Assembly: GCA_965204375.1 (NCBI GenBank)
Contig: OZ241986.1
Location: 2,016,001-2,080,000 of the forward strand
Direction: 5' to 3'
From: Candidatus Latescibacterota bacterium
GTDB lineage: Bacteria; Latescibacterota; UBA2968
DNA length: 64,000 nt
Numbering within the stretch: position 1 is the first letter of the stretch; each line of letters opens with the position of its first letter. Positions 29,537 through 53,054 of the stretch are shown here, piece by piece. The notes under the pieces were generated by a model that was not told the DNA's origin, ran no database searches, and saw only the letters and a program-made list of their open reading frames with translations. The position numbers were made by a program, and so were the translations under genes.

Positions 29537-31233
29537 CCAGACCAAATATTCTCGTGATCTTGACCGACGATCAGGGTTGGGGTGATTTGAGTGTACACGG
29601 CAACACAAATCTCAACACGCCAAATGTGGATTCTCTCGCACGAGATGGCGCGCTATTCGACCGGTTTTACGTCTGCCCGGTATGCGCGCCCACGCGAGCA
29701 GAATTTTTGACAGGACGCTATCATCTGCGCGGCGGTGTCCACGGCGTAAGCACGGGTGCCGAGCGACTAAACCTCGATGAAACAACAATTGCCGACGTGT
29801 TCAAAGCCGCTGGATACGCCACGGGTGCTTATGGCAAGTGGCACAATGGAACGCAACATCCCTATCATCCGAACGCACGGGGATTTGACGAATTTTTTGG
29901 ATTCTGTTCCGGACACTGGGGACAATATTTCGATGCCGAACTCGAGCACAACGGCGAACTCACGCGCGGAACGGGATATTTACCCGATGAATGTACAGAC
30001 CGCGCCATGGATTTTATGGCGGCAAATGTCGAACGCGGCCAACCGTTCTTCTGTTACCTCCCCTACAATATCCCACACACCCCATTTCAGGTACCAGACG
30101 AATTTTACGATCCATTCCGCGACAAACCGATAGAGATGCTGGCGACCAACCCCGATCAGGAAGAGATAGTCCGCACACGAGCGGCACTGGCACTATGTGA
30201 AAACATCGATTGGAACGTGGGGCGATTACTGGACAAACTCGACGAATTGGAAATCGCGGAAGACACCATTGTATTTTATTTTGGAGACAATGGTCCCAAT
30301 GGTGCGCGATGGAATGGCGGGATGAAAGGCACAAAAGGATCCACAGATGAAGGCGGCGTGCGCGTGGCGGGCTTGATGCGCTGGAAGGGGCATATTCAAG
30401 CGGGTACAGTAATTGAAGAAATCGCCGGAGCAATTGATTTATTGCCCACATTTGCCGACCTCGCGGGTATCGACTTAAAAGTTGAAAAACCCATAGATGG
30501 TCGCAGCCTCAAACCCCTGCTATTGGGCGAAGATGTCGAATGGTCTGACCGCATCATCCTATCACACCAGCGGGCACAATTGAGCGCACGCAATCAGCGA
30601 TTCCGATTGGACATAGAGGGCAAGTTGTACGATATGGCCGCCGATGGTGGACAGACAACAGATGTGTCAAAAGAACATCCCGATGTCCACGCAAAATTGT
30701 CAGATGCAGCGGCAAAATTTCACGCCGAAGTCTTGCCCGTCCACGACGACCGCCCCTTTGCCACGGGCTACTGGGAAACGACCCGCTTGCCCGCCCGAGA
30801 TGGGGTGCATCACGGCACAGTCCAGCGCAGTGCCGGCGCGCCCAACTGCTCGTATTTCACGCACTGGACCCAGGTAGGTGATCGGATGACATGGGAGATT
30901 GAAGTCGGCACAACGGGCGACTATGAAGCAGCGGTTTATTATACATGCCCTGAAGAAGATGTAGGATCAACCGTCGAGCTGGTATTTCATCCCGCACAAG
31001 GACAGGCAACACAAGTGCAAGGACAGGTGACCGACGCACACGACCCACCACTAATCGGCGCAGCAGATGACCGCTGGCCGCGCGGCGGCGAGTCTTACGT
31101 GAAGGATTTTGAGCCATTGACACTGGGAACAATCCACCTGAACGAAGGCAGAGGCACATTGACCTTGCGCGCCCTTGACGTACCCCATTCACAGGTAATG
31201 GATGTGCGGCGCGTGATGCTGATCCGCAGATGA
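29533..31233 (+). CDS. Arylsulfatase (formylglycine-dependent)
   Basis: RPNILVILTDDQG, CAPTRAEFLTGRY, GKWHNG and GDNG. Confidence 0.94.
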   Translation: MTRPNILVILTDDQGWGDLSVHGNTNLNTPNVDSLARDGALFDRFYVCPVCAPTRAEFLTGRYHLRGGVHGVSTGAERLNLDETTIADVFKAAGYATGAYGKWHNGTQHPYHPNARGFDEFFGFCSGHWGQYFDAELEHNGELTRGTGYLPDECTDRAMDFMAANVERGQPFFCYLPYNIPHTPFQVPDEFYDPFRDKPIEMLATNPDQEEIVRTRAALALCENIDWNVGRLLDKLDELEIAEDTIVFYFGDNGPNGARWNGGMKGTKGSTDEGGVRVAGLMRWKGHIQAGTVIEEIAGAIDLLPTFADLAGIDLKVEKPIDGRSLKPLLLGEDVEWSDRIILSHQRAQLSARNQRFRLDIEGKLYDMAADGGQTTDVSKEHPDVHAKLSDAAAKFHAEVLPVHDDRPFATGYWETTRLPARDGVHHGTVQRSAGAPNCSYFTHWTQVGDRMTWEIEVGTTGDYEAAVYYTCPEEDVGSTVELVFHPAQGQATQVQGQVTDAHDPPLIGAADDRWPRGGESYVKDFEPLTLGTIHLNEGRGTLTLRALDVPHSQVMDVRRVMLIRR

Positions 31234-31244
31234 AAACCAAGAGA

Positions 31245-31277
31245 ATCCGCAGATGAACGCAGATAGACGCAGATGAA
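31245..31277 (-). repeat. Short tandem 10-bp repeat, copy B (reverse orientation)
   Basis: ATCCGCAGATGAACGCAGATAGACGCAGATGAA; one more ATCCGCAGATGA unit overlaps the sulfatase stop codon. Confidence 0.8.
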
Positions 31278-31328
31278 GGCGAGGGATCTGAACAGGACGC
31301 CAAGTTGCGGCTAAATGAAGAATTTCAC

Positions 31329-31356
31329 TTGACAGTGGAATTCTTTTCTTTATATT
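31329..31356 (+). promoter_or_regulatory. Putative promoter of the Type I RM operon
   Basis: TTGACA - 16 bp - TATATT. Confidence 0.5.
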
Positions 31357-31412
31357 GCAGGAAAGGCTTTCATGTAATTTTTTTAATCAAACGCAACTCT
31401 TTGCCAGTAATT

Positions 31413-31997
31413 ATGAAATACAAGCTCAAAGACATCGCCCTTGTTCAGATGGGCCTTTCCTTTCGATCCCGCATTGAGCCGGACGCGGATGGAAATGTGG
31501 CTGTCATTCAGATGCGCGATCTGACCGAAGATAACAAATTGGATTATCGCACTCTCACGACCGTCAACATCAACGGCATCGATGAACGCCATCTGGTCGA
31601 ATGCAAAGATTTGGTTTTCCGCTCTCGAGGTAGAACTACTACTGCCGCAATTATCGACCAGGAACCAGGTCAAGCAGTTGTTGCGGCCCCGTTGTTTCTC
31701 ATTCGGGCTACAAGCGAAAAAGTACTTCCTGAGTATCTATACTGGTTTATCAACCTGTCCTCATCTCAAGCATTTTTACACAGCAGGGCGACCGGAACGA
31801 TGATGATTATGATAGGCAAATCGGCTCTCGATGCTTTGGAAATCCCTCTCCCCAATCTTGAAACACAGAAGCAAATCGTCACCCTCGCCGATTTGTTAAA
31901 TAAGGAACAAAGACTGATGAGAGCTTTGGTGGAGCAAAAGGAAAAACTGGTCAAAGCCATTCAGATGCGATTGGCAACTGAATCTGAAAAACCTTAA
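31413..31997 (+). CDS. Half-size Type I RM specificity subunit (single TRD)
   Basis: KLKDIALVQMGLSFR..DLVFRSRG..PEYLYWFIN..LEIPLPNLETQKQIV followed by a helix; one HsdS half. Confidence 0.82.
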   Translation: MKYKLKDIALVQMGLSFRSRIEPDADGNVAVIQMRDLTEDNKLDYRTLTTVNINGIDERHLVECKDLVFRSRGRTTTAAIIDQEPGQAVVAAPLFLIRATSEKVLPEYLYWFINLSSSQAFLHSRATGTMMIMIGKSALDALEIPLPNLETQKQIVTLADLLNKEQRLMRALVEQKEKLVKAIQMRLATESEKP

Positions 31998-32021
31998 ATC
32001 AACAGGAGTAAAAAAGAAAAC

Positions 32022-33536
32022 ATGAACCATCAAATCCAACAAAAAGACATCAACAACGCTGCCTGGGCTGCCTGCGACACCTTTCGCGGAGTGATGGATG
32101 CCGCCGGATATAAGGACTACATTCTCGTAATGTTGTTCCTGAAATACATTTCCGATGTCTGGAAAGACCACTACGAGGAATATGAAAAAAGATACGGCGA
32201 CAACGATGAACGCATCCGGCGCAGGCTGAGGAATGAGCGTTTTGTTTTGCCGGATGGCAGTAGCTTTTACAGCCTCTATGAACAACGCTCGGCTCCCAAT
32301 ATCGGCGAACTCATCAACATTGCGCTGGAGGAGATTGAAACGGAAAACAAACAGAAATTGGAAGGCGTTTTTCGCAATATAGATTTCAATAGTGAGACAA
32401 ATCTCGGCAGGACCAGAGACCGCAACCGCCGCCTGAAAACACTGCTGGAAGATTTCAACAAACCCGAATTGAATATGAGTCCCAGACGGGTTTCAGAGGA
32501 TGTGATTGGCAACACGTACATCTACCTGATTGAACGTTTCGCATCTGACGCGGGCAAAAAAGCCGGCGAGTTCTACACGCCACACAAGGTATCCGAACTG
32601 GTAGCAAAACTGTGCGCTCCCAAACCCGGCGCCCGCATCTGTGACCCCGCCTGCGGGTCTGCGGGTCTTCTCATTGAAGCCGCGCGTGTAGTAGGCGACA
32701 AAAACTACGCCCTTTATGGAATGGAAGTGAACGGTAGCACCTGGGCGTTGGCGCGTATGAATATGTTTCTGCATGGAGCCGATGCAGCCCGCATTGAATG
32801 GTGCAACACACTCACTGCCCCGGCACTCGTAGAATCCGACCGGCTGATGAAATTCGACAATGTGGTCGCCAATCCCCCGTTTTCGCTTAATAAGTGGGGC
32901 GCGGAAGATGCCGAGGCAGACATATACAACCGCTTCTGGCGCAGTTTACCTCCCAAATCCAAGGGCGACTATGCGTTTATCAGCCACATGGTGGAAGCGG
33001 CTTTGGAAAAACAGGGACGGGTTTCTGTTGTGGTCCCACACGGCGTTTTGTTCCGGGGCGGTGCTGAAGGGCGCATTCGCCAGCAACTCATCGAAGAAAA
33101 CTTGCTCGACGCTGTCATTGGCTTGCCGGGCAATCTATTCCCCACGACCTCAATACCAGTCGCCATTCTGGTCTTTGACCGCTCGCGTGAATACGGGGGC
33201 GCGAATGAGAACCGCAAAGATGTCTTGTTCATTGATGCAAGCCGCGAATATCAGGCCAGCAAGAATCAAAATGCATTGCTGGACGAACACATCGAGAAAA
33301 TCACCAACACTTATACCAAACGCCAGGATATGGACAAATATGCCCACCTCGCCACCTTTGAAGAAATTGAGGAAAATGACTTCAATTTAAACATTCCGCG
33401 TTATGTAGATACCTTTGAAGAAGAAGAGGAGATTGATATTGATGCCGTGCAGCTTGAGATAAACCAACTGGAAGAGGAGTTGAGTGTGGTGCGGGGAGAG
33501 ATGGGAAGATTAATGGAGGGAATAAAACGAGCATGA
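32022..33536 (+). CDS. hsdM: Type I RM methyltransferase subunit M
   Basis: WAACDTFRG, KAGEFYTP, DPACGSAGLL (motif I), ANPPF (motif IV) and FNLNIPRYV. Confidence 0.97.
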   Translation: MNHQIQQKDINNAAWAACDTFRGVMDAAGYKDYILVMLFLKYISDVWKDHYEEYEKRYGDNDERIRRRLRNERFVLPDGSSFYSLYEQRSAPNIGELINIALEEIETENKQKLEGVFRNIDFNSETNLGRTRDRNRRLKTLLEDFNKPELNMSPRRVSEDVIGNTYIYLIERFASDAGKKAGEFYTPHKVSELVAKLCAPKPGARICDPACGSAGLLIEAARVVGDKNYALYGMEVNGSTWALARMNMFLHGADAARIEWCNTLTAPALVESDRLMKFDNVVANPPFSLNKWGAEDAEADIYNRFWRSLPPKSKGDYAFISHMVEAALEKQGRVSVVVPHGVLFRGGAEGRIRQQLIEENLLDAVIGLPGNLFPTTSIPVAILVFDRSREYGGANENRKDVLFIDASREYQASKNQNALLDEHIEKITNTYTKRQDMDKYAHLATFEEIEENDFNLNIPRYVDTFEEEEEIDIDAVQLEINQLEEELSVVRGEMGRLMEGIKRA

Positions 33537-33900
33537 GCAAGAAATCCTCAAAAGATCTGACGATTCGCAGCAGCACAGCGAAATTTCTGATCTTTACCAA
33601 CCAAGCCGGTGAAGATAGTATCGAAGTGCGTTACCAGGATGAAACCATCTGGCTAACACAAAAACTCATGGCTGAGTTATTTTCCGTTGATCGCTCAGTT
33701 ATTACAAAGCACTTGCAAAATATCTTTAATGACAACGAGTTAGATCAGGATTCAGTATGTGCACGTTTTGCACATACTGCCGCTGACGGTAAAAATTACA
33801 ATACTCAGTTTTACAATCTGGACGCCATTATTTCCGTTGGTTATCGCGTAAACTCCAGGCGCGCCACGCAATTCCGCCAATGGGCAACCCGGGTTCTGCG
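33533..33900 (+). pseudogene. Truncated RhuM-family (virulence RhuM-like) gene
   Basis: ETIWLTQKLMAELF, YNLDAIISVGYRVNSRRATQFRQWATRVLR; similarity stops at 33900 and the ORF runs on out of frame through a toxin remnant to 34003. Confidence 0.78.
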
Positions 33901-33957
33901 GATAATATTGGACGAGCAAAAACCTATTTGCAAAATTACAAGGAGACCCAACGATGA
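33901..33957 (+). pseudogene. 3' remnant of a RelE/HigB-like toxin gene
   Basis: Reads DNIGRAKTYLQNYKETQR*, matching RDIARAKAYWLEYKEAQR* of the toxin at 34317, with the same CCCAACGATGA junction. Confidence 0.75.
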
Positions 33958-34280
33958 GAAAAATGAGAAATTATCGCGACTACTTAATCGAAGGGCTTTC
34001 TGACTTTGGGGAGGCCATCTCCTACCTGCAAGTCTCACTGGAAGAATACCAAAAAGACGGGTATGGCGATGTCCTGTATCTTGCTTATGAGACGGCGATT
34101 AAAGCGCAAGGCGGTACGCGAGAATTTGCGCGAAAGACGCATAGCAATCCTCAAGATGTGGAGAATGCCCTGTCAAACAAAGACGAGACGCTGATTGCGG
34201 ACATCATCGCCCAACTGCCCACGGCACAATGCGAGATTTCTGAAACAGAGACCGAAAAATCGCAGGCGGTCGAGACCTGA
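33954..34280 (+). CDS. Addiction-module antitoxin (HI1420/HigA-like), copy 1, orphan
   Basis: YRDYLIE.L.D..EAISYLQ..LEE..KAQGG followed by an HTH-like segment; paralogue of 34649. Confidence 0.8.
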   Translation: MRKMRNYRDYLIEGLSDFGEAISYLQVSLEEYQKDGYGDVLYLAYETAIKAQGGTREFARKTHSNPQDVENALSNKDETLIADIIAQLPTAQCEISETETEKSQAVET

Positions 34281-34316
34281 AATTGCACCCTGAACCAGGC
34301 AAAGGGCAGATAGAGA

Positions 34317-34652
34317 ATGCTTGCCACGCAACCGAGAAAACTGCAAATTTACCAGCGTTCAAATGGGCGAGAACCTTTCACCGAATGGCTGGAATCACGA
34401 AATCAAAAGACGCAGGAACGAATCCAGGCCCGACTTGACCGGCTTGTGGGCGGCAATTTTGGTGATTGTGAATCTATTGGTCAAGGTATCTTTGAAATTC
34501 GTCTCCATTTCGGTGCAGGCTATCGAATCTATTTTGGTGAAGTAGATAACACAATCGTCCTTCTGCTTTGTGGTGGCGACAAGTCCTCACAGAATCGAGA
34601 CATTGCACGCGCAAAAGCCTATTGGCTGGAATACAAGGAGGCCCAACGATGA
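34317..34652 (+). CDS. RelE/ParE-family addiction-module toxin (HI1419-like)
   Basis: GREPFTEWL, RLDRLVGGNFGD, EIRLHFGAGYRIYFG and LLLCGGDKSSQ. Confidence 0.92.
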   Translation: MLATQPRKLQIYQRSNGREPFTEWLESRNQKTQERIQARLDRLVGGNFGDCESIGQGIFEIRLHFGAGYRIYFGEVDNTIVLLLCGGDKSSQNRDIARAKAYWLEYKEAQR

Positions 34653-34969
34653 GACAAATGAGAGATTATCGCGATTACTTGATCGAGAAACTTTCTGACT
34701 GCGATAGAGCCATCTCCTATCTTCAAACAGCACTGGAAGAATACGAAATAGATGGAGACAGTGCTGCACTCCACCTCGCATTCAATCAGGCTGTTGAAGC
34801 ACAAGGCGGTGCGCGAGAATTTGCCCGAAAGACGCATAGTAATCCTCAAGACGTGGCGAATGCCCTGTCAAACAAGGACGAGACCCTGATTGCGAACATC
34901 ATCGCTCAACTGCCCGCGACGCAATGCGAGACCTCTGAAACAAAGAAATTGCAGACGGTTAAGACATAA
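34649..34969 (+). CDS. Addiction-module antitoxin (HI1420/HigA-like), copy 2
   Basis: ATGA overlap with the toxin; RBS AAGGAGG; strongly similar to 33954. Confidence 0.85.
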   Translation: MRQMRDYRDYLIEKLSDCDRAISYLQTALEEYEIDGDSAALHLAFNQAVEAQGGAREFARKTHSNPQDVANALSNKDETLIANIIAQLPATQCETSETKKLQTVKT

Positions 34970-35071
34970 AGCAGGAGGGCAAAAGCGATAAGCAGAAAAG
35001 CGCAAGATGATGTGTTGCCTGTCTGTTCCCGCCTCTGGCAGACAGGTGGACGCAGATGAAAAGATTGAAAT

Positions 35072-35293
35072 ATGGATAAAAGACTTTTAGAAAATCCTAC
35101 CGGGATTGTCATCGGAAGCAAAACTTCTGGTGATCGTGCAGCCGGTCTTGTTCAGTTAGTCCAGTCATGGATTGATGAGGGCGATACTGACGAACAGCGG
35201 GAAACACTCGAGTACCTCATTCACGCTTTGGATGAAGACCGACTCTCCAATCGCAAGCTCTTTCCGAAGAAACTGAAAGGAAAGAGTTGGTAA
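35072..35293 (+). CDS. Small acidic hypothetical protein (antitoxin-like)
   Basis: LVQSWIDEGDTDEQRETLEYLIHALDEDRLSNRKLFP; size and TA-rich context. Confidence 0.6.
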   Translation: MDKRLLENPTGIVIGSKTSGDRAAGLVQLVQSWIDEGDTDEQRETLEYLIHALDEDRLSNRKLFPKKLKGKSW

Positions 35294-35330
35294 GCCAGAA
35301 GTACTGCACAGTTCTATAAGGGATAACAGA

Positions 35331-36557
35331 ATGACAGTGCAAAATGGACCGTTGCCGAAGGGATGGCGGGAAGTGCGGCTAAATAACGTCGCCTCTATTA
35401 AAACTGGGCCTTTTGGCACACAACTGCATCAGCGCGATTATGTTCAATCTAACGGGACGCCAATAGTCACGGTTGAGCATTTGAGCGAAAGGGGACTCAT
35501 ACATAAAAATTTGCCTTTAGTATCTCATCATGACAAACAAAGATTGAGTCAATATCTCATTCAGGAAGGCGATATTGTTTTTAGCCGCGTTGGATCAGTT
35601 GATCGAAGTGCTTTGGTTTCAAAAGGCGAAGATGGATGGCTTTTTTCAGGTCGTCTATTGCGGGTAAGACCCAAGAAATGTGATGTATATAGCTCATATT
35701 TAAATTACTTTTTTCATACACGAAAATTTAGACACCATATGAAAAGCATTGCGGTTGGTGGAACTATGCCTTCAATAAATACCAGCATATTGAGCAATGT
35801 CATTATTCATCTTCCTTCTCTGGATCAACAAAAAGCCATTGCGTCGTTGCTGGAAAAATGGGACACGGCCATTGAGAAAACCGAAGCACTGATAGAGGCG
35901 AAGGAGAAGCGGTTTAAGTGGTTGCTGAAAACACTCATCAGCGACCAGCAGGATAATCCTGAATGGCAGCAGGTGAAATTGACGGAGGTTGGTGTAATCC
36001 ACTCTGGTGGAACGCCATCAACCCGAGACAGTAGCTACTGGAATGGCGATATTCCCTGGCTCACGCCCTCAGAAGTCACCAGACTATCTGAAAAATACAT
36101 CAATTCTACTGAAAGACATATAACTCAAAAAGGACTTTCCCGTACAACATTACTTCCTGAAAACTGCCTTATTATATGCACCAGAGCCACTATAGGAAAC
36201 TGTTGCATTAACACGGTTCCTATGGCAATCAATCAGGGATTCAAATGTATTCAGCCTTGCAGACGCTATTCAGTCACATTCTTATACTATGCCTTCCTGT
36301 TATTGAAGACACGACTGATAAGATTGTCCTGTGGAAATACATTTGGCGAAGTTTCAAAGAAAGATTTTGCCAATATCCTCATATCCGTTCCGTCTCTATT
36401 TGAACAGAAAACTATTGCTGCACATCTGGACACAGCACAAGAGGAAATATATCTACTCAACCAACTCACCGAACAATACCGCACGCAAAAACGCGGATTG
36501 ATGCAGAAATTGCTGACGGGAGAATGGAGAATCACGCCAAATAAAAGAAAAAATTAA
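35331..36557 (+). CDS. hsdS: Type I RM specificity subunit S (two TRDs)
   Basis: LPKGWREVRL; TRD1; PSLDQQKAIA helix; TRD2 (SGGTPST..YWNGDIPW); PSLFEQKTIA..KRGLMQKLLTG. Confidence 0.95.
   Translation: MTVQNGPLPKGWREVRLNNVASIKTGPFGTQLHQRDYVQSNGTPIVTVEHLSERGLIHKNLPLVSHHDKQRLSQYLIQEGDIVFSRVGSVDRSALVSKGEDGWLFSGRLLRVRPKKCDVYSSYLNYFFHTRKFRHHMKSIAVGGTMPSINTSILSNVIIHLPSLDQQKAIASLLEKWDTAIEKTEALIEAKEKRFKWLLKTLISDQQDNPEWQQVKLTEVGVIHSGGTPSTRDSSYWNGDIPWLTPSEVTRLSEKYINSTERHITQKGLSRTTLLPENCLIICTRATIGNCCINTVPMAINQGFKCIQPCRRYSVTFLYYAFLLLKTRLIRLSCGNTFGEVSKKDFANILISVPSLFEQKTIAAHLDTAQEEIYLLNQLTEQYRTQKRGLMQKLLTGEWRITPNKRKN
36493..36530 (+). repeat. hsdS 3'-end direct repeat, copy 1 (inside hsdS)
   Basis: GCGGATTGATGCAGAAATTGCTGACGGGAGAATGGAGA. 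Confidence 0.9.
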
Positions 36558-36586
36558 AATGGACTTTTATGGCAGATCAGGAGGAT

Positions 36587-36853
36587 ATGATGAGAAATTT
36601 TAGAATTATCGTTGAAAGATATTCCGATGGCTATGTGGGATATCCGCTCGGATTGAAGGGGGTCGTCATTGGGCTAGGAGATACTTATGAAGAGGCATTG
36701 GCAGATGTAAAATCTGCTATTCGGTTTCATATTGAGACGTTTGGTAAAGAAGCGTTTGATGAAGAGATTGTTGACGGGAAAGTGGAGGGTAAAACCAAAT
36801 ACAAAGGCGAGGATGTGAATTTTATACAAAAAGGAGCGACCAGCCTCAAATGA
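36587..36853 (+). CDS. HicB-family antitoxin (no adjacent hicA)
   Basis: FRIIVERYSDGYVGYPLGLKGVVIGLGDTYEEALADVKSAIRFHIE; RBS AGGAGG. Confidence 0.85.
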   Translation: MMRNFRIIVERYSDGYVGYPLGLKGVVIGLGDTYEEALADVKSAIRFHIETFGKEAFDEEIVDGKVEGKTKYKGEDVNFIQKGATSLK

Positions 36854-36955
36854 GGAGGATTACTGAAAAGGAGCAATCCTCACTGGTCACTAATATGATC
36901 ATGTGCCATTATGCTGCATTTGTCAACCAAGTAAATGCTTAAAACGAAAAAATTA

Positions 36956-37018
36956 ACTCAAAAATGCGGATTGATGCAGAAATTACTCACTGGACAATGG
37001 AGAGTGAGCAGGCAATAA
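36956..37018 (+). repeat. hsdS 3'-end direct repeat, copy 2
   Basis: Encodes TQKCGLMQKLLTGQWRVSRQ*; identical 19-bp core at 36966. Confidence 0.9.
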
Positions 37019-37071
37019 AAAGGACATTGTATGAAAAAAATTCCAAAAATTGGATTTATAGGAGATACCAA

Positions 37072-37923
37072 ATGAATTGGAAAGACTACGAAAAAGAAGT
37101 GTATCAATATTTCGCACAGATGTACCCTGAAGCTGAAATTACTTACGATGCGAAAATTACAGGTCTCTATTCAAAAGAAGAACGCCAAGTAGATGTGTTA
37201 ATCGAAGATGAGGTTGCAGGAATGCCAATCAAGATTGCGGTGGATGCAAAGTATTTCTCGCGAAAAGTAGATATTAAATGCGTCGAATCGTTCATCTCAA
37301 TGATAGGAGATATAGGTGCAAATCAGGGGCTATTAATAACTCAAAAAGGATATTCGGACGCAGCAATCAAGCGCGCCCATTATGGACCTGATAAGATCGA
37401 GCTTGATGTGTTAAACTTCGAAGATTTACAAAATCATCAAGGCTTGGGAGCTATCCCTTATTCAGGCGAGAATGCCATATTATTATCTGCCCCTTTTGGT
37501 TGGGTAATCGATAACAAAAGACGACCGGGACTCCTCGCTTGTCTTTATCAACGAGGCTTGGATCTTAAAAAAGCGCAAGAAAATTTAGAATGGATGTATC
37601 TAAATTTTTGGCATAAAGACGAAAAAGCTTCATCTATCGTCAAACTTGTTAAAATGCAAAATAAAAACTTGGAAGCCCGGCATACAAATTTATGTATAAA
37701 CGAACGGCGTTCACCTAAAAGAACTGATAAAAGAAATACATATATTAAAGTAGTTAATTCGGATCAGCTACCTTGTCAAGAAATCACAGGATATATCGAC
37801 TGTGACGAATTTATAGTATTTTTTGTACTGTTTACAAAAAAAGAGTTGGAAAGCAGAAATTTGCGAAAACTCGCATACATTCTTAAATACGCAACCCCAA
37901 CAAAAATTGCTTTCAGAAATTAG
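37072..37923 (+). CDS. Mrr-like PD-(D/E)xK restriction endonuclease with an uncharacterised C-terminal domain
   Basis: WKDYEKEV..RQVDVLI..IAVDAKYFSRKVD..GLLITQKGYSDAA (Mrr_cat pattern); AT-rich; RBS AGGAG. Confidence 0.82.
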   Translation: MNWKDYEKEVYQYFAQMYPEAEITYDAKITGLYSKEERQVDVLIEDEVAGMPIKIAVDAKYFSRKVDIKCVESFISMIGDIGANQGLLITQKGYSDAAIKRAHYGPDKIELDVLNFEDLQNHQGLGAIPYSGENAILLSAPFGWVIDNKRRPGLLACLYQRGLDLKKAQENLEWMYLNFWHKDEKASSIVKLVKMQNKNLEARHTNLCINERRSPKRTDKRNTYIKVVNSDQLPCQEITGYIDCDEFIVFFVLFTKKELESRNLRKLAYILKYATPTKIAFRN

Positions 37924-37930
37924 AAGGCAA

Positions 37931-37973
37931 GCGGATTGATGCAGAAATTGCTGACCGGGAAATGGCGAGTTAA
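37931..37973 (+). repeat. hsdS 3'-end direct repeat, copy 3
   Basis: GCGGATTGATGCAGAAATTGCTGACCGGGAAATGGCGAGTTAA, encoding GLMQKLLTGKWRV. Confidence 0.9.
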
Positions 37974-37988
37974 GGAGCAGAAAAGGTC

Positions 37989-39806
37989 ATGCAGAACATA
38001 GATTTTTCTCAAATTCAGAGCCATAACGGAAGTCAAAGCAAAGGATTTGAAGAACTGGTATGTCAGTTGGCACGTCTCTCGAAACCGGAAAATGCCAAAG
38101 AATTTATTCGCAAAGACGGAGCGGGAGGGGATGCAGGAGTAGAATGCTATTGGAAATTACAGGATGGCTCTGAACAGGCTTGGCAAGCTAAATACTTTCT
38201 AAAACCATTAGGCTCTTCGCAGTGGAATCAGATTTCTGGATCTGTTAAATCTGCGTTAAGTAAACATCCAGATTTAACCAAGTATTATATCTGTTTGCCT
38301 AAAGATAGAAATGATAGCCGTCGATCAAGCACACAAGGCAGGCAGATTACCTCTGAATTGGACAAATGGAACCAGTACGTAGAGAAATGGAAAGCGATAG
38401 CTGCTACGAAATCCATGCAGGTTGAGTTTGAATACTGGGGCGAACATGAAATACTCTTGATGTTGCAAAGGGATACCTGTGATTTTGCTGGCATAGCCAA
38501 GTACTGGTTTGGAACACCAACTCCTCGTCCAACAGATATTTTGCCTTATTGGTATTTACCTACGGACCTTGTTGACCAAAAAATTAAACATGAAACCAAC
38601 CTGACCTTTGTCAGACCTCAAGCCGCGGAGTTGGCGCGGCGGTTAAAAGAACCTCGGCGATTCATTCAAGTCGTATCGGGAGCGAGGCAGGTCGGCAAAA
38701 CAACCCTTGCATTGCAAGTGGCAGACCAGAGCACACTGCCATATCACTTTGCCAGCGCAGATGAACCGACACTTCGTGGCAACGAATGGATTGAATCTCA
38801 ATGGGAAGAGGCCCGATTGCTTGCCACGAGTTCAAAAAGCAAAGGAGCCTTACTCATCTTAGATGAAGTGCAAAAAATTCCACATTGGGCTGAAATGGTC
38901 AAGTACCTTTGGGATGAAGATACCCGAAAAAAAACATTGGTGAAAACAGTATTGCTCGGCTCTGCTCCGATTTTAATCGGGTATGGACTGACAGAAAGCC
39001 TTGCGGGACGTTTTGAAATCCTGCACATGCCACACTGGAGCTTTTCCGAAATACAGGAAGCCTTCGGATGGGATCTGAACCAATATCTCTTTTACGGTGC
39101 CTATCCAGGTGCCGCGCCATTGATAAAACAACCGCTCCGCTGGTCGCGCTACATCATAGACTCTCTCATAGAAACAACTGTCGCACGCGACGTACTTTTG
39201 CTTTCTCGCGTTGACAAACCGGCATTGCTTCGGCGGTTATTTGAACTGGGCTGTGCCTATTCAGGACAAATCCTTTCCTACACAAAAATGATAGGCCAAC
39301 TTCAGGATGCTGGGAACACAACCACACTTGCCCACTACCTCGACCTGCTTTCAGGCGCCGGCGTACTCACCGGATTGCACAAATACGCGGGCGACACAGC
39401 GCGGCGCCGGGGGTCCAGCCCCAAGTTTCAAGTCTTCAACACCGCGTTGATAACCGCACAATCTGACATGACGCAGGCAGAAGCCTTTGCAGACCGCGAA
39501 TTTTGGGGACGCTTAACAGAGTCCGCAGTGGGCGCACACCTGATCAACGCATCCGCTGGCGGTACTTGTGAAGTATTTTATTGGCGGGAGCGCAACCGAG
39601 AAGTGGATTTTGTCTTGCGAAAAGGAAAGAAACTCGTGGCAATAGAAGTAAAAAGCGGGCGCACAACCACTTCGTTCCCTGGCATGGAATCTTTCTCCAA
39701 ATTTTTCAAACCAGGTCGCAGGTTAATCGTCGGTTCCGGTGGCATTTCTCTCGAACGATTTCTCTCAACACCCGTGGAATATTGGATAAATCTATCAAAA
39801 CTATAA
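37989..39806 (+). CDS. Fusion: N-terminal Mrr-like nuclease (Avs4/NACHT effector type) + AAA_14 ATPase + DUF4143
   Basis: FEELVCQL..GGDAGVE..WQAKYF; GARQVGKT (Walker A), LILDEVQK (Walker B), ESLAGRF; REVDFV..AIEVKSG. Confidence 0.8.
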   Translation: MQNIDFSQIQSHNGSQSKGFEELVCQLARLSKPENAKEFIRKDGAGGDAGVECYWKLQDGSEQAWQAKYFLKPLGSSQWNQISGSVKSALSKHPDLTKYYICLPKDRNDSRRSSTQGRQITSELDKWNQYVEKWKAIAATKSMQVEFEYWGEHEILLMLQRDTCDFAGIAKYWFGTPTPRPTDILPYWYLPTDLVDQKIKHETNLTFVRPQAAELARRLKEPRRFIQVVSGARQVGKTTLALQVADQSTLPYHFASADEPTLRGNEWIESQWEEARLLATSSKSKGALLILDEVQKIPHWAEMVKYLWDEDTRKKTLVKTVLLGSAPILIGYGLTESLAGRFEILHMPHWSFSEIQEAFGWDLNQYLFYGAYPGAAPLIKQPLRWSRYIIDSLIETTVARDVLLLSRVDKPALLRRLFELGCAYSGQILSYTKMIGQLQDAGNTTTLAHYLDLLSGAGVLTGLHKYAGDTARRRGSSPKFQVFNTALITAQSDMTQAEAFADREFWGRLTESAVGAHLINASAGGTCEVFYWRERNREVDFVLRKGKKLVAIEVKSGRTTTSFPGMESFSKFFKPGRRLIVGSGGISLERFLSTPVEYWINLSKL

Positions 39807-39862
39807 TTCATCTGCATTCATCTGCGCCCATCTGCGTCCATCTGCGGATACATCTGCGGATA
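39807..39862 (+). repeat. Short tandem 10-bp repeat, copy C (5 units)
   Basis: TTCATCTGCATTCATCTGCGCCCATCTGCGTCCATCTGCGGATACATCTGCGGATA. Confidence 0.85.
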
Positions 39863-39878
39863 AAACAGGAACAAAGCA

Positions 39879-42800
39879 ATGCCTACCTTCCCCTTCAGTG
39901 AAAAACACCTCTCCCAGATCCCCGCCCTGCAACAGCTAATGAACCTGGGCTACCGGTATCTATCCCCTGACCAGGCGATGGTAGAACGCGGTGGTCGCGC
40001 CTCCAATGTGCTGCTGGAGAACATCTTGCGTGATCAGCTTAAAAAAATAAACCGCATTCATTACAAAGGCGACATGTATCTTTTCAGCGAAGAGAATATT
40101 CAATCCGCCATTCAGAAAATCAAAAATGTTCAATACGATGGCTTACAAAAAACAAACGAAGTGATATACGACCTGATAACACTTGGCACATCACTTGAAC
40201 AAACCATTGAGAGCGATTCCAAAAGTTATACCCTGAACTATATCGACTGGAAAAATCCCGCGAACAATGTATTTCACGCCACAGCAGAATTTTCCGTTGA
40301 ACGCTCCCGCAGCATGGAAACCGCAAGACCCGACATTGTACTGTTTGTGAATGGCATTCCCCTTGTCGTAATCGAATGCAAAGGCCCCGATGTAGATGTG
40401 GATCAGGCCATATCTCAAACAATCCGAAATCAAGGCGAAGAATATATCCCGAGACTCTTTATTTACGCGCAGTTATTATTGGCTATAAACAAAAATGAGG
40501 CGAAGTACGCAACGGTAGGAACTTCAAAGGCGTTCTGGAGCATTTGGGACGAAATGGAAGATTCTACTCACGAAGTAAATGCCAGCGTCAATAACCCCCT
40601 TTCTGCTGAAGACAAAGACGCCCTGTTTCGCGGCGATTTCGCCCTGGCACAACCACACTTTGCCGCACTTGAAAGCACAGGCGACCGACTGCTCACGGAA
40701 CAGGACAAATGTCTTTACAGTCTATGCCGTCCAGAGCGTCTATTGGAACTGATTTACGGCTTTATCGTCTTTGACCTTGGCATCAAAAAAATTGCCCGAT
40801 ACCAGCAGTTCTTTCTCGTCCGTTCCGCAGTAAAACGCATCAAACAGATAGATAATACGGGCCGTCGCCAGGGTGGCATTGTCTGGCACACACAGGGATC
40901 CGGAAAGTCCATCACAATGGTCATGCTCGCTCGTGCTCTGGCTCTGGACCTCGAGATGAACAACTCCCGAATGATTCTCGTTACAGACCGCAAAGACCTG
41001 GATAAACAACTCGGCAACACCTTTGCGGCATGTGGACTGATCATGGAACGAGCGACAACCGGACGAAATCTGGTTAAACACATCAAAAACAAAGTGGGCA
41101 TCATCACGACGCTGATCAATAAATTTGATACGGCACTTTCTGCCGAAAAATACGTTGATGATTCAGCGAATATTGTCGTCCTCGTAGATGAAAGCCACCG
41201 CACAAACTTCGGTTCTCTCGCAGCGCGCATGAGGCAGATGTTACCCAATGCTTGTTACATCGGCTTCACGGGCACGCCATTGATGAAAAAAGAGAAGAAC
41301 AGTTTTGTCAGATTTGGAGGTCTTATTGAACCGCATTACTCCGTGCGACAGGCGATAAAAGACAAGGCAGTGGTTCCCCTCCTTTACGAAGGTCGGCATG
41401 TAGAGATAGAGCAAAACGAAAACGCGGTTGATTTGTGGTTCGAACGCCATACGGTAAACCTGACAGACCAACAAAAAGCCGACTTGAAAAGAAAATATTC
41501 CCGTGCAGATGCACTCAACCAGGCAGACCAGGCCGTCTATATGCGCGCGTTTGACATAAGCACCCACTACCGCGTAAACTGGCAGGACACCCCATTTAAG
41601 GCGCAACTTGTAGCACCCAACAAAGCAACTGCCCTGAAGTATCGAGAATTTTTCAACGAGATAAATACTGTTTCATCGGAGGTCGTTATTTCTCCCCCGG
41701 ATACGCGAGAGGGACATGAGGAGGTAGGCGAAGAGACAGATGAGGTCAACGCATTCTGGAACACAATGATGGCCCGTTATGGTTCTGAGGATCAATACAA
41801 CAAGCAAATCATCGCACAGTTCAAACACGCGGACGAACCGGAAATTTTGATTGTAGTAGATAAACTCATCACCGGATTTGACGCACCTCGCAATACCGTG
41901 CTCTATCTGTGCCGCAAGTTGCGCGAACACACATTGCTCCAGGCCATTGCCCGGGTTAATCGCGTACACGAAAATAAGGAATTTGGCTATGTCGTCGATT
42001 ATGCCAATGTATTGGGTGAACTGGACAAAGCATTAGACGAATACGACGCGCTTGCGGATTTTGACGGAAAGGACCTCGCCGATGTCCTGGTCTCCATCCA
42101 GGAAGAAATACAAAAATTGCCGCAACGTTACTCAGACCTCTGGGACATATTCAAAGAAATTAAAAACTCTCGCGATGAAGAACGCTACGAAGTCCTGCTA
42201 TCCGATGACGCATTGCGGGAAGATTTTTATGAACGCCTCACGGAGTACGGCAAGACCCTTGCCATCGCGCTTTCATCTGAGCAGTTTATTATGCAGACCG
42301 ACGAGGCGCAACTCAAACGCTACAAAAGCGACCTCCTGCGTTTTGAGAAACTGAGAAAGGCTGTCAGACTGCGCTACGCCGAAGCCATTGATTACGGCGA
42401 CTATGACTCCAAAATTAAAAAGTTGCTAAACACGCATATTCAAGCAAACGAGGTCACCCAATTAAACGATCCCGTGGATATTTTTGATGACAATACCTTT
42501 CCTATGGTCAGAGAGGCGCAAGGCATTTATCGCACCCAAAACGCGGCGGCAAACGCCGATTATATCGCGCATGTCACCAAGCGCAAAATTATCGAAAATA
42601 TGGACAAAGACCCCGCTTTTTATGAGAAATTTTCAAAGCTCATTCAGGAGGCAATCGACGATTTCAGGCAGCAACGGATATTAGCCCTCGACTATCTGCA
42701 AAAGGTGAGAGATATTCGAGACAAGGTCGAAAACACACAACGCGACGATGTCCCCGATGAGATTCGCAATAACCGTGAAGCCTGTGCGTATTTTGGCGCA

Positions 42801-43073
42801 ATTAAACCTTGTTTGTCAAAAATTGATATAGATGAAAGCCAGACCGATGACATAGCAATAAAAACAACGCTTGCCATTCAATCTGCGATAGATAAAAATT
42901 GGAAGGTAGATTTTTGGAACGATAGCGACGCGCAAAATGACATAAAAAATGAGATGGATGACTTCTTCTACGATGTGGTGGAAGACGTATATGGCATTGA
43001 TTTATCGTCAGAGCAGATGGACGAAATGATCAGCCAAACAATGCAGATCGCCAAATTCTGGAGGCCCACTTAA
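39879..43073 (+). CDS. hsdR: Type I RM restriction subunit R
   Basis: RPDIVLFVNGIPLVVIECK nuclease; WHTQGSGKS, DESHR, GFTGTP, LITGFDAP and QAIARVNR helicase motifs. Confidence 0.97.
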   Translation: MPTFPFSEKHLSQIPALQQLMNLGYRYLSPDQAMVERGGRASNVLLENILRDQLKKINRIHYKGDMYLFSEENIQSAIQKIKNVQYDGLQKTNEVIYDLITLGTSLEQTIESDSKSYTLNYIDWKNPANNVFHATAEFSVERSRSMETARPDIVLFVNGIPLVVIECKGPDVDVDQAISQTIRNQGEEYIPRLFIYAQLLLAINKNEAKYATVGTSKAFWSIWDEMEDSTHEVNASVNNPLSAEDKDALFRGDFALAQPHFAALESTGDRLLTEQDKCLYSLCRPERLLELIYGFIVFDLGIKKIARYQQFFLVRSAVKRIKQIDNTGRRQGGIVWHTQGSGKSITMVMLARALALDLEMNNSRMILVTDRKDLDKQLGNTFAACGLIMERATTGRNLVKHIKNKVGIITTLINKFDTALSAEKYVDDSANIVVLVDESHRTNFGSLAARMRQMLPNACYIGFTGTPLMKKEKNSFVRFGGLIEPHYSVRQAIKDKAVVPLLYEGRHVEIEQNENAVDLWFERHTVNLTDQQKADLKRKYSRADALNQADQAVYMRAFDISTHYRVNWQDTPFKAQLVAPNKATALKYREFFNEINTVSSEVVISPPDTREGHEEVGEETDEVNAFWNTMMARYGSEDQYNKQIIAQFKHADEPEILIVVDKLITGFDAPRNTVLYLCRKLREHTLLQAIARVNRVHENKEFGYVVDYANVLGELDKALDEYDALADFDGKDLADVLVSIQEEIQKLPQRYSDLWDIFKEIKNSRDEERYEVLLSDDALREDFYERLTEYGKTLAIALSSEQFIMQTDEAQLKRYKSDLLRFEKLRKAVRLRYAEAIDYGDYDSKIKKLLNTHIQANEVTQLNDPVDIFDDNTFPMVREAQGIYRTQNAAANADYIAHVTKRKIIENMDKDPAFYEKFSKLIQEAIDDFRQQRILALDYLQKVRDIRDKVENTQRDDVPDEIRNNREACAYFGAIKPCLSKIDIDESQTDDIAIKTTLAIQSAIDKNWKVDFWNDSDAQNDIKNEMDDFFYDVVEDVYGIDLSSEQMDEMISQTMQIAKFWRPT

Positions 43074-43783
43074 TGTCGGAAACTCAGTACGCCATCACAT
43101 ACGCGGGCGAATCCATTCCCTTTCATCTGAGTTATTCCAACAGGAAGTCTATCGAAATTGCCGTTCATCCAGATGGCTTAGTGACAGTAAAAGCACCACT
43201 GGAAACAGATAAAGATCTCATCGAGCGTCGCGTTTACAAGCGCGCGCGTTGGATAAGACGCCAGATCCGCTATTTCGCACAGTTTGACCCGCGGACTCCA
43301 GAGCGGCGGTTTGTCGGAGGTGAAAGCCACCTGTACCTGGGCAAAAAGTATCGGCTAAAGATAAGACAGGCCGAAACGGACAAGGTCTTGCTAAAACACG
43401 GTTTTTTTTACATCGCAACGGTTAATAACGAGCCAGAACATATCGCGATATTGCTTGAAGAATGGTACCGAAGCAAGGCGAATATTTATTTTTCAAAAGT
43501 GTTTGAAGAATGCTGGCGTCCCTTTCAAAAAAAAGAGGTGGATAAACCCACCCTCAAAATTCGCAATATGAAAACGCGCTGGGGCAGTTTGAGCAGCAGA
43601 GGCAGCCTGACATTGAATTTGGAACTCATCAAAGCACCCAGAGAATGTATTGAATACGTCGTTATCCACGAACTATGTCACCTGTTTCATCCCAATCACG
43701 GAGCAGAGTTTTATAACTTGCTTGAGCGCATGCTGCCCGATTGGATAAAACGAAAGCACAAATTGGAAATGGCACTGTCTTAG
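43073..43783 (+). CDS. YgjP/DUF45 (SprT/M48-like) zinc metallopeptidase
   Basis: MKTRWGSL and IEYVVIHELCHL..PNHG..FY; usual position after hsdR. Confidence 0.9.
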   Translation: MSETQYAITYAGESIPFHLSYSNRKSIEIAVHPDGLVTVKAPLETDKDLIERRVYKRARWIRRQIRYFAQFDPRTPERRFVGGESHLYLGKKYRLKIRQAETDKVLLKHGFFYIATVNNEPEHIAILLEEWYRSKANIYFSKVFEECWRPFQKKEVDKPTLKIRNMKTRWGSLSSRGSLTLNLELIKAPRECIEYVVIHELCHLFHPNHGAEFYNLLERMLPDWIKRKHKLEMALS

Positions 43784-43820
43784 AATCAGTTCTGAAGCCA
43801 CATCAAAAAGGACCCCTAAA

Positions 43821-44696
43821 ATGCTCACTCCAAATTGGAATATCCTCCCAAAAGAAACCATCCGGGAATTCGATGAAAAGGGCTGTCTAATTGTGCGCCG
43901 GGCACTCGATAAAAAAACGGTCGCACACCTTCTCGAAATATGCGACCGCCTCATCGATAGCGACAAAAAAACAAACCGACAAACGCGTGAGAATGGATAT
44001 TACGATGGCTTTCGCAACTGCATCGCCTTAGACGATGCCTTTTTGCCACTCCTCACACACCCCAAAATTTTCCCCATGGTCGTACAATTTCTCGGCGCGT
44101 ATCTTCACCTCACTACCTCACACCTGATATACAAACACCCCGACCCGCCCGGCACGCCTGATTTTGCTCGAGCACCAAACTGGCATCGCGATTACGGCCG
44201 CCTCAACAGCGACCTCCTGCACGCAGCCCCTCGGGGCATGCTCAAGTGCGCTTATTATCTCACGGATCTCACTGAACTCAATGCAGGCGCCACACTCGTC
44301 GTGCCCGGTAGCAATCTCTTGCGAGAACCTCTCGACATCCCCCCAAATGGCGACCCAGAAGGCGCATTAGAACCGCATCTCGAACCCGGAGACTGTCTCA
44401 TATTTGAAAACCGAACCTATCACGCTGGCGGTGTCAACCTATCCGACCAGACCCGCAAAGTCATCATGTTCGGTTATGGCTACCGATGGCTCGCCCCCAT
44501 AGATTACCGCGTACAATCCCAATCGCTATTGGCCAAACTCGATCCATTGGGCCAGTACCTCCTTGGCGAAACACTGGTCAAAACAGAAGAATATCAAACC
44601 AGCGGCGGAGAAACCCCGCTCAAACCCTGGTGCGAACAAAACAACCTGCCCCTCGTCAGACCACCAGTATGGCAAGAGGATCTCGCCCTTGCCTGA
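43821..44696 (+). CDS. Phytanoyl-CoA dioxygenase family protein
   Basis: WHRD, YLTDL, GATLVVPGS and GDCLIFENRTYHAG. Confidence 0.9.
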   Translation: MLTPNWNILPKETIREFDEKGCLIVRRALDKKTVAHLLEICDRLIDSDKKTNRQTRENGYYDGFRNCIALDDAFLPLLTHPKIFPMVVQFLGAYLHLTTSHLIYKHPDPPGTPDFARAPNWHRDYGRLNSDLLHAAPRGMLKCAYYLTDLTELNAGATLVVPGSNLLREPLDIPPNGDPEGALEPHLEPGDCLIFENRTYHAGGVNLSDQTRKVIMFGYGYRWLAPIDYRVQSQSLLAKLDPLGQYLLGETLVKTEEYQTSGGETPLKPWCEQNNLPLVRPPVWQEDLALA

Positions 44697-44703
44697 TTAC
44701 CAA

Positions 44704-46020: not shown

Positions 46021-46021
46021 A

Positions 46022-46177
46022 ATCGCTGTCCATTCATATTGAATGCTCATACTAATCTCATACTAATATATGTAAATTTAGTATGAAAAGCTATCTATAC
46101 TTGTCCATATCGCTGTCCATTCATATTGAATGCTCATACTAATCTCATACTAATATATGTAAATTTAGTATGAAAAG
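46022..46177. repeat. 69-bp direct duplication upstream of fic (46022-46090 and 46109-46177)
   Basis: ATCGCTGTCCATTCATATTGAATGCTCATACTAATCTCATACTAATATATGTAAATTTAGTATGAAAAG occurs twice. Confidence 0.92.
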
Positions 46178-46262
46178 TCACCCATACTTATTCATCAAAA
46201 TATGGGGTTTGGGCACAAAACGTCGTATATTGTGAAACATCAAAATAAAAAGGACTATATTA

Positions 46263-52113: not shown

Positions 52114-52455
52114 CTACGACGCAATATCAGGCGTGTCATCCTTATCCAGAGCCGCAATGCCCGTCAGTGCGACGGGCGGACGATCAGGGAATTCCGCCAC
52201 CAAGCGCAATGTTCCGCCCATCGCTTCGACATAGCCACTGAGCGTGGATAACAGCAGGTCGCTACGCTTTTCAATACGGGATACGTTTTCCTGGTTAATC
52301 CCGAGTTCCTTTGCCACGCGCACCTGCGTCTTCTTCCGCGCCTTGCGCAGGTCTCGCAGGGACATTTCTTCGGCGATCAACGCCTTAGCCCGCTCTTCCA
52401 CTTTCTTCCGACGCGTCAGAGAGAGCCGGTCCAGCCTTTCTGCTAGAGTCGTCAT
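52114..52455 (-). CDS. HigA-like XRE antitoxin
   Basis: LRDLRKARKKTQVRVAKELGINQENVSRIEKRSDLLLSTL..AMGGTL. Confidence 0.92.
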   Translation of the reverse strand: MTTLAERLDRLSLTRRKKVEERAKALIAEEMSLRDLRKARKKTQVRVAKELGINQENVSRIEKRSDLLLSTLSGYVEAMGGTLRLVAEFPDRPPVALTGIAALDKDDTPDIAS

Positions 52456-52820: not shown

Positions 52821-53054
52821 GGTCTGAATATGACTTGAAAAGCATATTTTGTCAAACGGTATTCTGCCCGTCCCTTGCGAAGCACCGAGGCAGATAAATG
52901 CGAGGATTGCTCCGAACCAGAGCCGCAGGCGCGAGATCGGTTTTTCTTTTATATTTGTTTTTTGCAACTTATTTTTCTCAGGTGAGTTAGAGAAAACGAG
53001 TTGCAGACCTGAGCCAACGACATGGCTCATTCACCCATTCCAAGGAGTAAACCC

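Follow-up and report, generated by a model that had tools for sequence, protein, structure and literature searches.

The window analyzed here (64,000 nucleotides, positions 2,016,001 to 2,080,000 of contig OZ241986.1 from a Candidatus Latescibacterota bacterium; the term refers to this whole stretch) contains a chromosomal type I restriction-modification (RM) operon with the order half-hsdS, hsdM, hsdS, cargo, hsdR, and YgjP. Assignment to type I follows from the Pfam domains found, namely N6_Mtase and HsdM_N for hsdM, two stretches of Methylase_S for hsdS, and HSDR_N, SWI2_SNF2, and a T1R_D3-like domain for hsdR. Between hsdS and hsdR lie cargo genes that are separated by copies of the hsdS 3' end, hereafter called tails. 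The embedding of defense genes in type I RM operons is known; the question addressed here is their route of entry. The locus was annotated by Pfam, NCBIfam, and PADLOC scans (Table 1).

An exact-match search of the window recovered the 19-mer GCGGATTGATGCAGAAATT (hereafter the core) at 36493, 36966, and 37931, all on the plus strand and with core-to-core spacings of 473 and 965 bp, as an earlier note on this DNA had reported. The chance expectation for this 19-mer is 0.02, three matches were reached in 0 of 100 shuffles, and no further site was found in the window with up to three mismatches allowed. Each core copy encodes GLMQKLLTG(E/Q/K)WR and reaches its own stop, and the codons 3' of the core read TTG CTG ACG, TTA CTC ACT, and TTG CTG ACC in copies 1, 2, and 3, respectively, again in agreement with that note. 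The tails in the window differ mostly at synonymous sites. The count of three tails is correct for copies with an exact core, but not as a total. A hybrid fourth copy (tail1b; 36751–36805) has 71% identity to tail 1 over 55 nt and reads RLMKRLLTGKWRVKPNTKARM followed by a stop in the tail frame. This copy is embedded, in a different frame, in the 3' part of the open reading frame (ORF) labeled as HicB and had therefore been overlooked. According to a six-frame motif search, the window has four hsdS-type ends and none elsewhere, namely that of the 408-aa hsdS (35331–36557) and those of three orphans with only 3–15 open codons upstream. The orphans have no recognition domain, and all four tail copies are in direct orientation.

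Allelic origin of the tails and exchange at the core

For comparison, a degenerate 23-mer that encompasses all three copies was used to scan a species-representative genome collection, which yielded 79 places (given below by L numbers; L078 and L079 are on one contig). Eleven of these (L005, L008, L010, L024, L026, L044, L051, L058, L066, L073, and L075) are chance pattern matches without RM genes and were excluded. Seven Latescibacterota loci (L011, L022, L030, L034, L035, L069, and L077) share with the window the order sulfatase, half-hsdS, hsdM, hsdS, cargo, hsdR, and YgjP. Amino acid sequence identity of hsdM is 92–97% in six of these loci and 86% in L077; that of hsdR is 92–97% in the six closer loci (for L030, over the first 232 aa only, at the locus edge) and 78% in L077. 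A comparison of the hsdR DNA with complete E. coli genomes gave no match. Among the syntenic loci, hsdS is only 32–59% identical, and the cargo between hsdS and hsdR differs. This interval contains a 152-aa gene without assigned family and a metallo-beta-lactamase-fold gene in L011, the same genes plus an insertion sequence (IS) in L069, an HNH protein in L022, and a Schlafen/AlbA_2 protein in L077. In L034, it contains HNH_5, an Avs-N-like gene, and two unknown genes, and in L030 a PIN-TPR-GreAB-C pair, IS elements, gene fragments, and HicB-HicA. L035 has the nuclease-ATPase gene of the window in a probably frameshifted form.

Each piece of the array in the window has its own nearest relative among these loci. 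Positions 36756–37001 correspond to L030 9786–10031 at 94.3% identity, where an hsdS end is followed by a spacer and then by another tail, an orphan, at the same 215-bp spacing. Positions 36956–37042 align at 87–89% identity with the true hsdS ends in L011 and L069, and the match extends past the stop and the intergenic bases through the first four codons of the 152-aa cargo gene; homology to L011 and L069 stops at 37042. Positions 37931–39898 correspond to L035 at 91% identity, beginning at the initial base of the core and extending across the cargo into hsdR (for tail 3 plus cargo, 91% over 1976 nt). Therefore, the tails derive from different hsdS alleles, each of them with its own downstream gene still attached, and the suggestion of different alleles rather than a local duplication is borne out. 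Tail 2 is a mosaic that is L030-like to the left of the core and L011/L069-like to the right, and it is a crossover product itself. The four-codon remnant at 37031–37042 marks the point at which a former cargo gene was interrupted by replacement.

The relatives also indicate where exchange took place. If the T of the TTG (Leu) codon is taken as the reference point for positions, the core occupies −5 to +13. In pairwise comparisons of eight full-length alleles, DNA identity reaches 1.00 at −5 to +9 and 0.88 over the preceding 30 nt, and it falls to 0.76, 0.65, and 0.39 in successive 15-nt bins thereafter. The final ~60 nt of hsdS are conserved between alleles, with the 19-bp core as the sole invariant stretch. 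Among the relatives, recognition domains and cargo vary independently of each other. L069 and L034 have both recognition domains alike (93 and 97% amino acid sequence identity) and different cargo, L022 and L035 have the second recognition domain alike (96%) and different cargo, and in L011 and L069 the cargo is the same and the recognition domains are only 29–34% identical. The switch points lie between −16 and +14 for L022/L035 and between −7 and +11 for L069/L034, and the segment shared by L011 and L069 starts at about +34. Thus, the test that the earlier note had proposed, alignment of related loci to locate cargo breakpoints, places the switch between hsdS body and cargo in or beside the core in all three informative pairs, indicating that the "tail remainder + gene" is a real exchange unit whose two parts are linked, as that note had envisaged.

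Repeated tails were also sought in other type I RM loci, as had been suggested, and in this pattern-biased sample they were found in L020, L030, L034, L046, and L079. Among the fetched loci with a full-length hsdS end, hsdR is located downstream on the same strand in 43 of 45, and the gap between hsdS and hsdR is at least 588 nt in 37 of these 43, indicating that embedded cargo is the rule in this family. Same-strand orphan tails between hsdS and hsdR are present in L020 (Nitrospirales), L034, L046, and L079; L030 (Latescibacterota) has an orphan tail as well, with its hsdS split by an IS. L046 is from a Pelobium isolate and has two orphans, one of them behind a DUF1883-TIR gene. Outside of Latescibacterota, orphan tails are also present in Nitrospirota, Bacteroidota, and one unclassified genome. 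Of the loci with gaps of at least 3 kb, 4 of 15 contain them, compared with 0 of 22 loci with gaps of 588–2762 nt (hypergeometric p ~0.02). The two tail copies in L079 are almost identical over ~83 nt, and those in L046 differ mostly at synonymous sites. In L001 and L061, a tail lies directly before hsdR, and no hsdS was found within the short stretch covered.

Tails from different alleles are also what a strain chimera would show, and the source organism is probably uncultured, with all of its relatives being metagenome-assembled genomes. However, an assembly artifact that strung together strain variants of differing cargo at a shared tail is extremely improbable. A protein identical to the Mrr-like cargo product lies on a contig of 6,340,849 bp, the junction composed of tail, 215 bp, and tail is found in L030 and another orphan in L034 (both "chromosome: 1" records of 5.6–5.7 Mb), and the orphans of L046 come from an isolate. 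Moreover, a 19-bp repeat is shorter than the usual assembly k-mer sizes.

The position of the tails relative to the following genes may explain their persistence. In eight of nine orphans, the distance from the tail stop to the earliest start of the next ORF of at least 100 aa is −22 to +37 nt, and most full-length hsdS ends examined are equally near their first cargo gene. Short tails may persist because each holds the ribosome-binding site of the next gene and a stop/start overlap, such that selection for translational coupling would keep them.

Cargo genes, junctions, and the origin of the stack

The three cargo genes that had been named previously (HicB, an Mrr-like nuclease, and a nuclease-ATPase fusion) differ in integrity. 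For the first, only 36570–36765 is derived from HicB, with 98.5% identity to HicB of L030 (18719–18914). The L030 copy is 81 aa long and located directly before a HicA_toxin gene (5.8e-9), just before hsdR. In the window, the HicB-like part breaks off at 36765, with its final third and its partner hicA lost, so an intact HicAB pair is present in L030 and not in the window. The Pfam family HicB_lk_antitox matches this ORF only at E 0.04, below its cut-off, and a comparison of the L030 HicB-like protein with sequences of solved structures gave nothing meaningful (best E 0.6). Because a tail copy occupies its 3' part, the ORF is a HicB::tail fusion; the name HicB stands for the 5' part and not for an intact gene.

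The second cargo gene is Mrr-like as proposed, with a start at 37072 rather than at 36964 as in the ORF list. It stops just 7 nt 5' of tail 3 and has no DNA relative among the 79 loci. The protein has 417 homologs at E ≤ 1e-5, which come in two lengths, ~460 aa with a C-terminal TPR-type extension and ~281–314 aa. Among the best 120 of the 417, 81 have 424–485 aa with the C-terminal extension, and 39 are shorter than 400 aa, mostly 281–314 aa. The short forms are recurrent, some of them on long contigs, and close relatives of the protein in the window end at the same point with different last residues. These lengths bear on a possible truncation of the Mrr-like gene by tail 3, which the long homologs would suggest and the recurrent short ones would not require.

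The third cargo gene, previously described as a nuclease-ATPase fusion, can be specified as an Avs2-type N-terminal domain followed by AAA_14 and DUF4143. Residues 2–177 of the 605-aa protein match PADLOC Avs2 N-terminal models (4.7e-62), and residues 207–599 match the PADLOC candidate PDC-S01 (PDLC04791; 2e-174) on profile positions 2–393 of 395, which is a full-length family match. The copy in L035 (8169–9970, minus strand) is split into ORFs of 314 and 280 aa, probably by a frameshift or an assembly error. The full PDC-S01 gene has 70–74% DNA identity between Latescibacterota, Nitrospirales, and a gammaproteobacterial genome. In L030 (18612–18729) and L077 (11334–11464), only the first ~120–130 nt of an AAA_14/DUF4143 (PDC-S01) gene are kept, and these fragments start where the stand-alone gene starts in L020, L041, and L067.

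Two junctions are microhomology joins of 10–11 nt that cut genes. At the HicB::tail junction, the HicB part ends in GCGTTTGATGAAGA, which is core-like, and an L030-type tail remainder follows. The two alignments with L030 overlap by 10 nt at 36756–36765, and the join removed the last third of HicB as well as hicA. The other junction is found in L030, where the HicB leader directly follows a 118-nt 5' fragment of an AAA_14 gene and the two overlap by 11 nt. Two of the presumed cassettes are debris, namely the truncated HicB and the 137-bp spacer without a gene. The left edges of the orphans vary relative to the core. The edge coincides with the core start in tail 3 and L034, lies 10 nt 5' of the core in tail 2 and L030, and is ~9 nt (L020), ~14 and ~24 nt (two copies in L046), and ~40 nt (L079) 5' of the core in the other loci.

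These observations bear on the idea, favored in the earlier note, that the core is an attachment site at which "tail + gene" cassettes are moved by a site-specific recombinase encoded elsewhere, as are integron cassettes or integrase-less cis-mobilizable elements. The units are indeed gene-sized and delimited by direct repeats of the target 3' end, each with a replacement tail, breakpoints cluster at the core, and the pattern is present in several phyla. In addition, the near-identical ~83-nt direct repeat in L079 brackets a two-gene insert in the manner of attL/attR, and two independent orphans share their start base. However, a constant att boundary across independent insertions is lacking, with edges from 0 to ~40 nt upstream of the core, and several junctions cut genes outside the core (HicB, the remnant at 37031–37042, and the AAA_14 fragments in L030 and L077). 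Direct reading revealed no dyad symmetry in the core, and inverted repeats were not reported for any of its copies. When 100 nt around the orphan tails were folded as single-stranded DNA, no hairpin better than those of shuffled sequences was obtained (z-scores of +1.47, −0.25, and −0.14 on the plus strand and −0.26 and +0.46 on the minus strand, without a common stem); only the real hsdS end had a better fold than its shuffles (z −2.49). Pfam detected no integrase or transposase family among the 16 locus ORFs and 41 other ORFs of at least 90 aa in the window, such that the previous statement on the absence of a recombinase holds at this level, and the cargo intervals of ten related loci contain only IS transposases (L030 and L069). 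A dedicated attachment site is thus very unlikely; the earlier interpretation stands in its allelic origin, linked unit, and core breakpoints and is not supported in its defined attachment site.

A different possibility is that the orphans go back to additional, once complete hsdS genes, or to type I loci in tandem, that alternated with cargo; deletions would have trimmed these genes, and the last codons would have been kept for the translation signals of the next gene. An 85-codon hsdS fragment behind an IS in L030, a 152-aa ORF without family match that ends in a tail in L046, and an hsdS of only 270 aa in L035 would fit such trimming, as would microhomology deletion at the HicB::tail and AAA_14::HicB junctions and the ribosome-binding site and start codon inside the tail. 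Nevertheless, no second full- or half-length hsdS end (E ≤ 1e-3) was found in the 45 loci with a full-length hsdS, the orphan edges cluster within ~40 nt of the core and not over the 1.2-kb gene, and the mosaic tail 2 points to crossover rather than trimming. We regard this explanation as unlikely.

In our judgment, these orphaned 3' ends of different hsdS alleles are probably scars left when homologous crossover at the conserved end of hsdS was combined with illegitimate joining. Under this explanation, the hsdS–hsdR interval of a conserved chromosomal operon would serve as a swap site for defense cargo, with hsdR as the right-hand homologous crossover zone and the hsdS end as the left-hand one, since homology on the way from the variable recognition domain to the variable cargo is limited to the core region. 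As a rule, exchange would replace the cargo. A stack would form when a "tail remainder + cargo" is added by homologous crossover at the tail and a microhomology-guided illegitimate join on the opposite side; alternatively, a circularized "tail + gene" fragment might integrate at the tail with the same result. Once two tails are present, crossover between any of them could reshuffle or delete cargo, and a dedicated recombinase would be unnecessary. The order of events and the pathway (RecA-type exchange plus illegitimate joining) are what we infer from the arrangement of these segments.

Several points weigh against this explanation. Homologous recombination alone cannot make the first orphan from parents with a single tail; this step is presumed, and no intermediate of it was seen among the loci compared. 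Tail 3 and the orphan of L034, which are independent, begin at the identical base, the first G of the core; this shared start base and the 7-nt gap between the Mrr-like gene and tail 3 are tidier than random illegitimate joining predicts. The 19-bp identical run in the window is short for RecA-dependent exchange, although full alleles offer ~55 nt at 88–100% identity. No orphan tail is present in 11 of the 15 long intervals, indicating that stacking usually leaves no such scar, and the sample is biased in that it comprises only loci containing the pattern TTGATGCAGAAAYTNYTNACNGG. Finally, the segment of cargo 3 and hsdR has 85–97% identity per 150 nt to L035 and is about as diverged as the L035 hsdR (85–95%), so that no polarity or order of acquisition can be read from it. 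In sliding comparisons of this segment with the relatives, there is no clear switch, with L035 at ~90% throughout and L034 and L022 at ~96% in hsdR.

Overall, the tails hint at how defense genes swap and stack; ordinary recombination at a conserved gene end is the most likely way, without a dedicated cassette machine. The hsdS tail would then mark both the moving unit (tail remainder plus gene) and the crossover point, with orphan tails recording past additions. If general, orphan hsdS tails could be used as a sequence signature for finding embedded defense genes and for dating or ordering their acquisition, and they would predict cargo that is prone to deletion because direct repeats flank each gene. 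It is quite unlikely that the hsdS 3' end is instead a true recombination site, used by a distant recombinase or a short-homology pathway, and forms an integrase-less, integron-like platform in several phyla that captures, stacks, and sheds single defense genes in type I RM operons, with the tail doubling as a translational-coupling leader.

Outside of the hsdS–hsdR interval, the half-size hsdS is conserved across all seven syntenic loci (68–96% amino acid sequence identity), in contrast to the variable main hsdS. The interval between hsdM and hsdS (33533–34969) has stacking of a similar kind. A 300-nt unit, composed of the last 46 nt of a RelE/HigB-type toxin gene and an antitoxin-like gene, occurs twice with 79% identity (33907–34206 and 34602–34901). 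At the first copy, the unit adjoins a RhuM gene broken off after ~123 codons, with the junction at an imperfectly similar stretch; this truncated RhuM matches the PADLOC candidate PDC-S05. The loci of relatives have two or three tandem diverged toxin/antitoxin units. Intergenic gaps contain runs of a 10-nt repeat with CATCTGCG (15 matches in the window compared with 3.2 expected) at 31225–31280, 35043–35060, and 39807–39862, which are inverted on the two sides of the block from half-hsdS to the last cargo gene and lie at module boundaries in related loci. These decamer arrays were considered as locus-specific boundaries and rejected, given that arrays are also found at 13223–13248 and 59446–59482; because of their presence elsewhere in the window, they look like a genome-wide intergenic repeat.

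An Rfam scan of 30000–45000 (E ≤ 0.1) gave no match. Counts from a consensus scan for promoters and terminators in 31000–44000 were not clearly above shuffles. Promoter-like sites were rarer than in shuffles, terminator-like sites numbered 22 compared with 14.8 (sd 4.3) in shuffles, and no convincing plus-strand terminator was found between the cassettes. The other ORFs in the window are housekeeping genes, such as hisS, aspS, RNase HII, phoH, ybeY, and nrdR. An 87-bp tandem repeat (1.9 copies, 95% matches, internal 11-nt repeats) at 46022–46189 is located just upstream of a minus-strand Fic-domain gene (44704–46050), and a second Gp49/HigB-type toxin gene with an HTH partner is found outside the RM locus at 52114–53030 (minus strand).

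Table 1. Features of the type I RM locus, in window coordinates.
Feature	Position	Strand	Evidence and remarks
Sulfatase	29533–31233		
Half-size hsdS, one recognition domain, 5' of hsdM	31413–31997	+	Pfam Methylase_S 4e-11; PADLOC Specificity_I 6.7e-27
hsdM, conserved left frame	32022–33536	+	Pfam N6_Mtase 2.8e-102, HsdM_N; 86–96% aa in 7 Latescibacterota loci
RhuM fragment	33533–34003		
RelE/HigB-type toxin gene between two diverged antitoxin-like genes	33954–34969		
73-aa ORF	35072–35293		
Full-length hsdS, two recognition domains, core copy 1 at 36493–36511	35331–36557	+	Pfam Methylase_S 4.9e-45, 2 stretches; 407 open codons up to tail
Array	36569–39806		
Chimeric ORF, HicB-like 5' part (36570–36765) and out-of-frame tail copy	36569–36853	+	
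Hybrid tail1b, HicB sequence GCGTTTGATGAAGA running into tail remainder KWRVKPNTKARM and stop	36751–36818	+	
Spacer, no plus-strand gene of at least 40 aa	36819–36955	+	Common to L030
Orphan tail 2, core 36966–36984	36956–37018	+	Readable as 27-codon ORF from ATG 36935
14-codon remnant ORF, stop overlapping the Mrr-like ATG (ATGA)	37031–37075	+	First 4 codons are the start of the L011/L069 152-aa cargo gene
Mrr-like restriction endonuclease gene, 283 aa	37072–37923	+	Pfam Mrr_cat 8.7e-09
Orphan tail 3, core 37931–37949	37931–38001	+	AAGGAG 37972–37977; start of next gene 37989; tail-frame stop 37999–38001
605-aa protein gene, Avs2-type N-terminal domain, AAA_14, DUF4143	37989–39806	+	Pfam AAA_14 4.2e-23, DUF4143 7.6e-27
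hsdR, conserved right frame	39879–43073	+	Pfam HSDR_N, SWI2_SNF2, T1R_D3-like
YgjP-like peptidase	43073–43783		

Comparison with known systems

No description of repeated or orphan hsdS 3' ends was found in the openly accessible literature, with subscription journals outside the coverage. A Campylobacter paper from 2005 reportedly deals with ORFs linked to hsd genes. For elements that accrete in tandem at gene 3' ends, including integrase-less cis-mobilizable elements, a copy of the target 3' end flanks each unit and the target gene stays intact. The array in the window shares both of these properties, but it has no integrase or constant att boundary, its units are one gene long, and some of its joins are at microhomologies. 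Integron arrays are ordered, co-oriented stacks of mostly promoterless single genes with a short repeated element in between. The window likewise stacks co-oriented genes separated by a short repeat; however, no IntI-type tyrosine recombinase was found among its ORFs, attI and attC-like folded palindromes or hairpins are lacking, and the repeat is the coding end of a gene. Sites of the Xer/dif type are ~28 bp long with two inverted arms, and no inverted arms are present at the core. In homology-facilitated illegitimate recombination of naturally transformable bacteria, one homologous anchor and a join at a few bases of microhomology add foreign DNA and delete some resident DNA. Such a process could fit the truncated HicB and lost hicA in the window, although by itself it would not account for donor ends within ~40 nt of the core.

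Conserved regions of hsdS are known as sites of recombination in the shuffling of hsdS domains, according to two reports (PMC7672463; PMC6265443), and a "terminal conserved region" of hsdS is named in another (10.1101/2022.09.01.506293). The use of such regions (central and terminal) is common to the window, the phase-variable hsdS invertons, and the excision-reintegration locus tvr of pneumococci. Those systems move recognition domains by means of inverted repeats and a linked recombinase and thereby change specificity, whereas the window has direct repeats without a recognition domain that separate unrelated defense genes, and no recombinase.

A further likeness is to the defense genes embedded in type I RM operons ("guilt by embedding"; PrrC and the PADLOC candidates PDC-S), with which the window shares same-strand cargo between hsdS and hsdR. 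The text of the 2021 PADLOC paper makes no mention of repeated or orphan hsdS 3' ends. Embedding was described as frequent in type I RM, with PrrC named, in a preprint that offers only the idea of a "genomic sink," states that the significance of embedding "remains to be explored," and has 0 occurrences of "hsdS" and "recombination" (10.1101/2024.01.29.577857). The site between hsdS and hsdR was termed "a potential recombination hotspot" in a further paper (PMC12255303). As far as their accessible text goes, these two embedding papers contain no repeated hsdS 3' ends and no mechanism, whereas the tails in the window mark the exchange unit and the crossover point.

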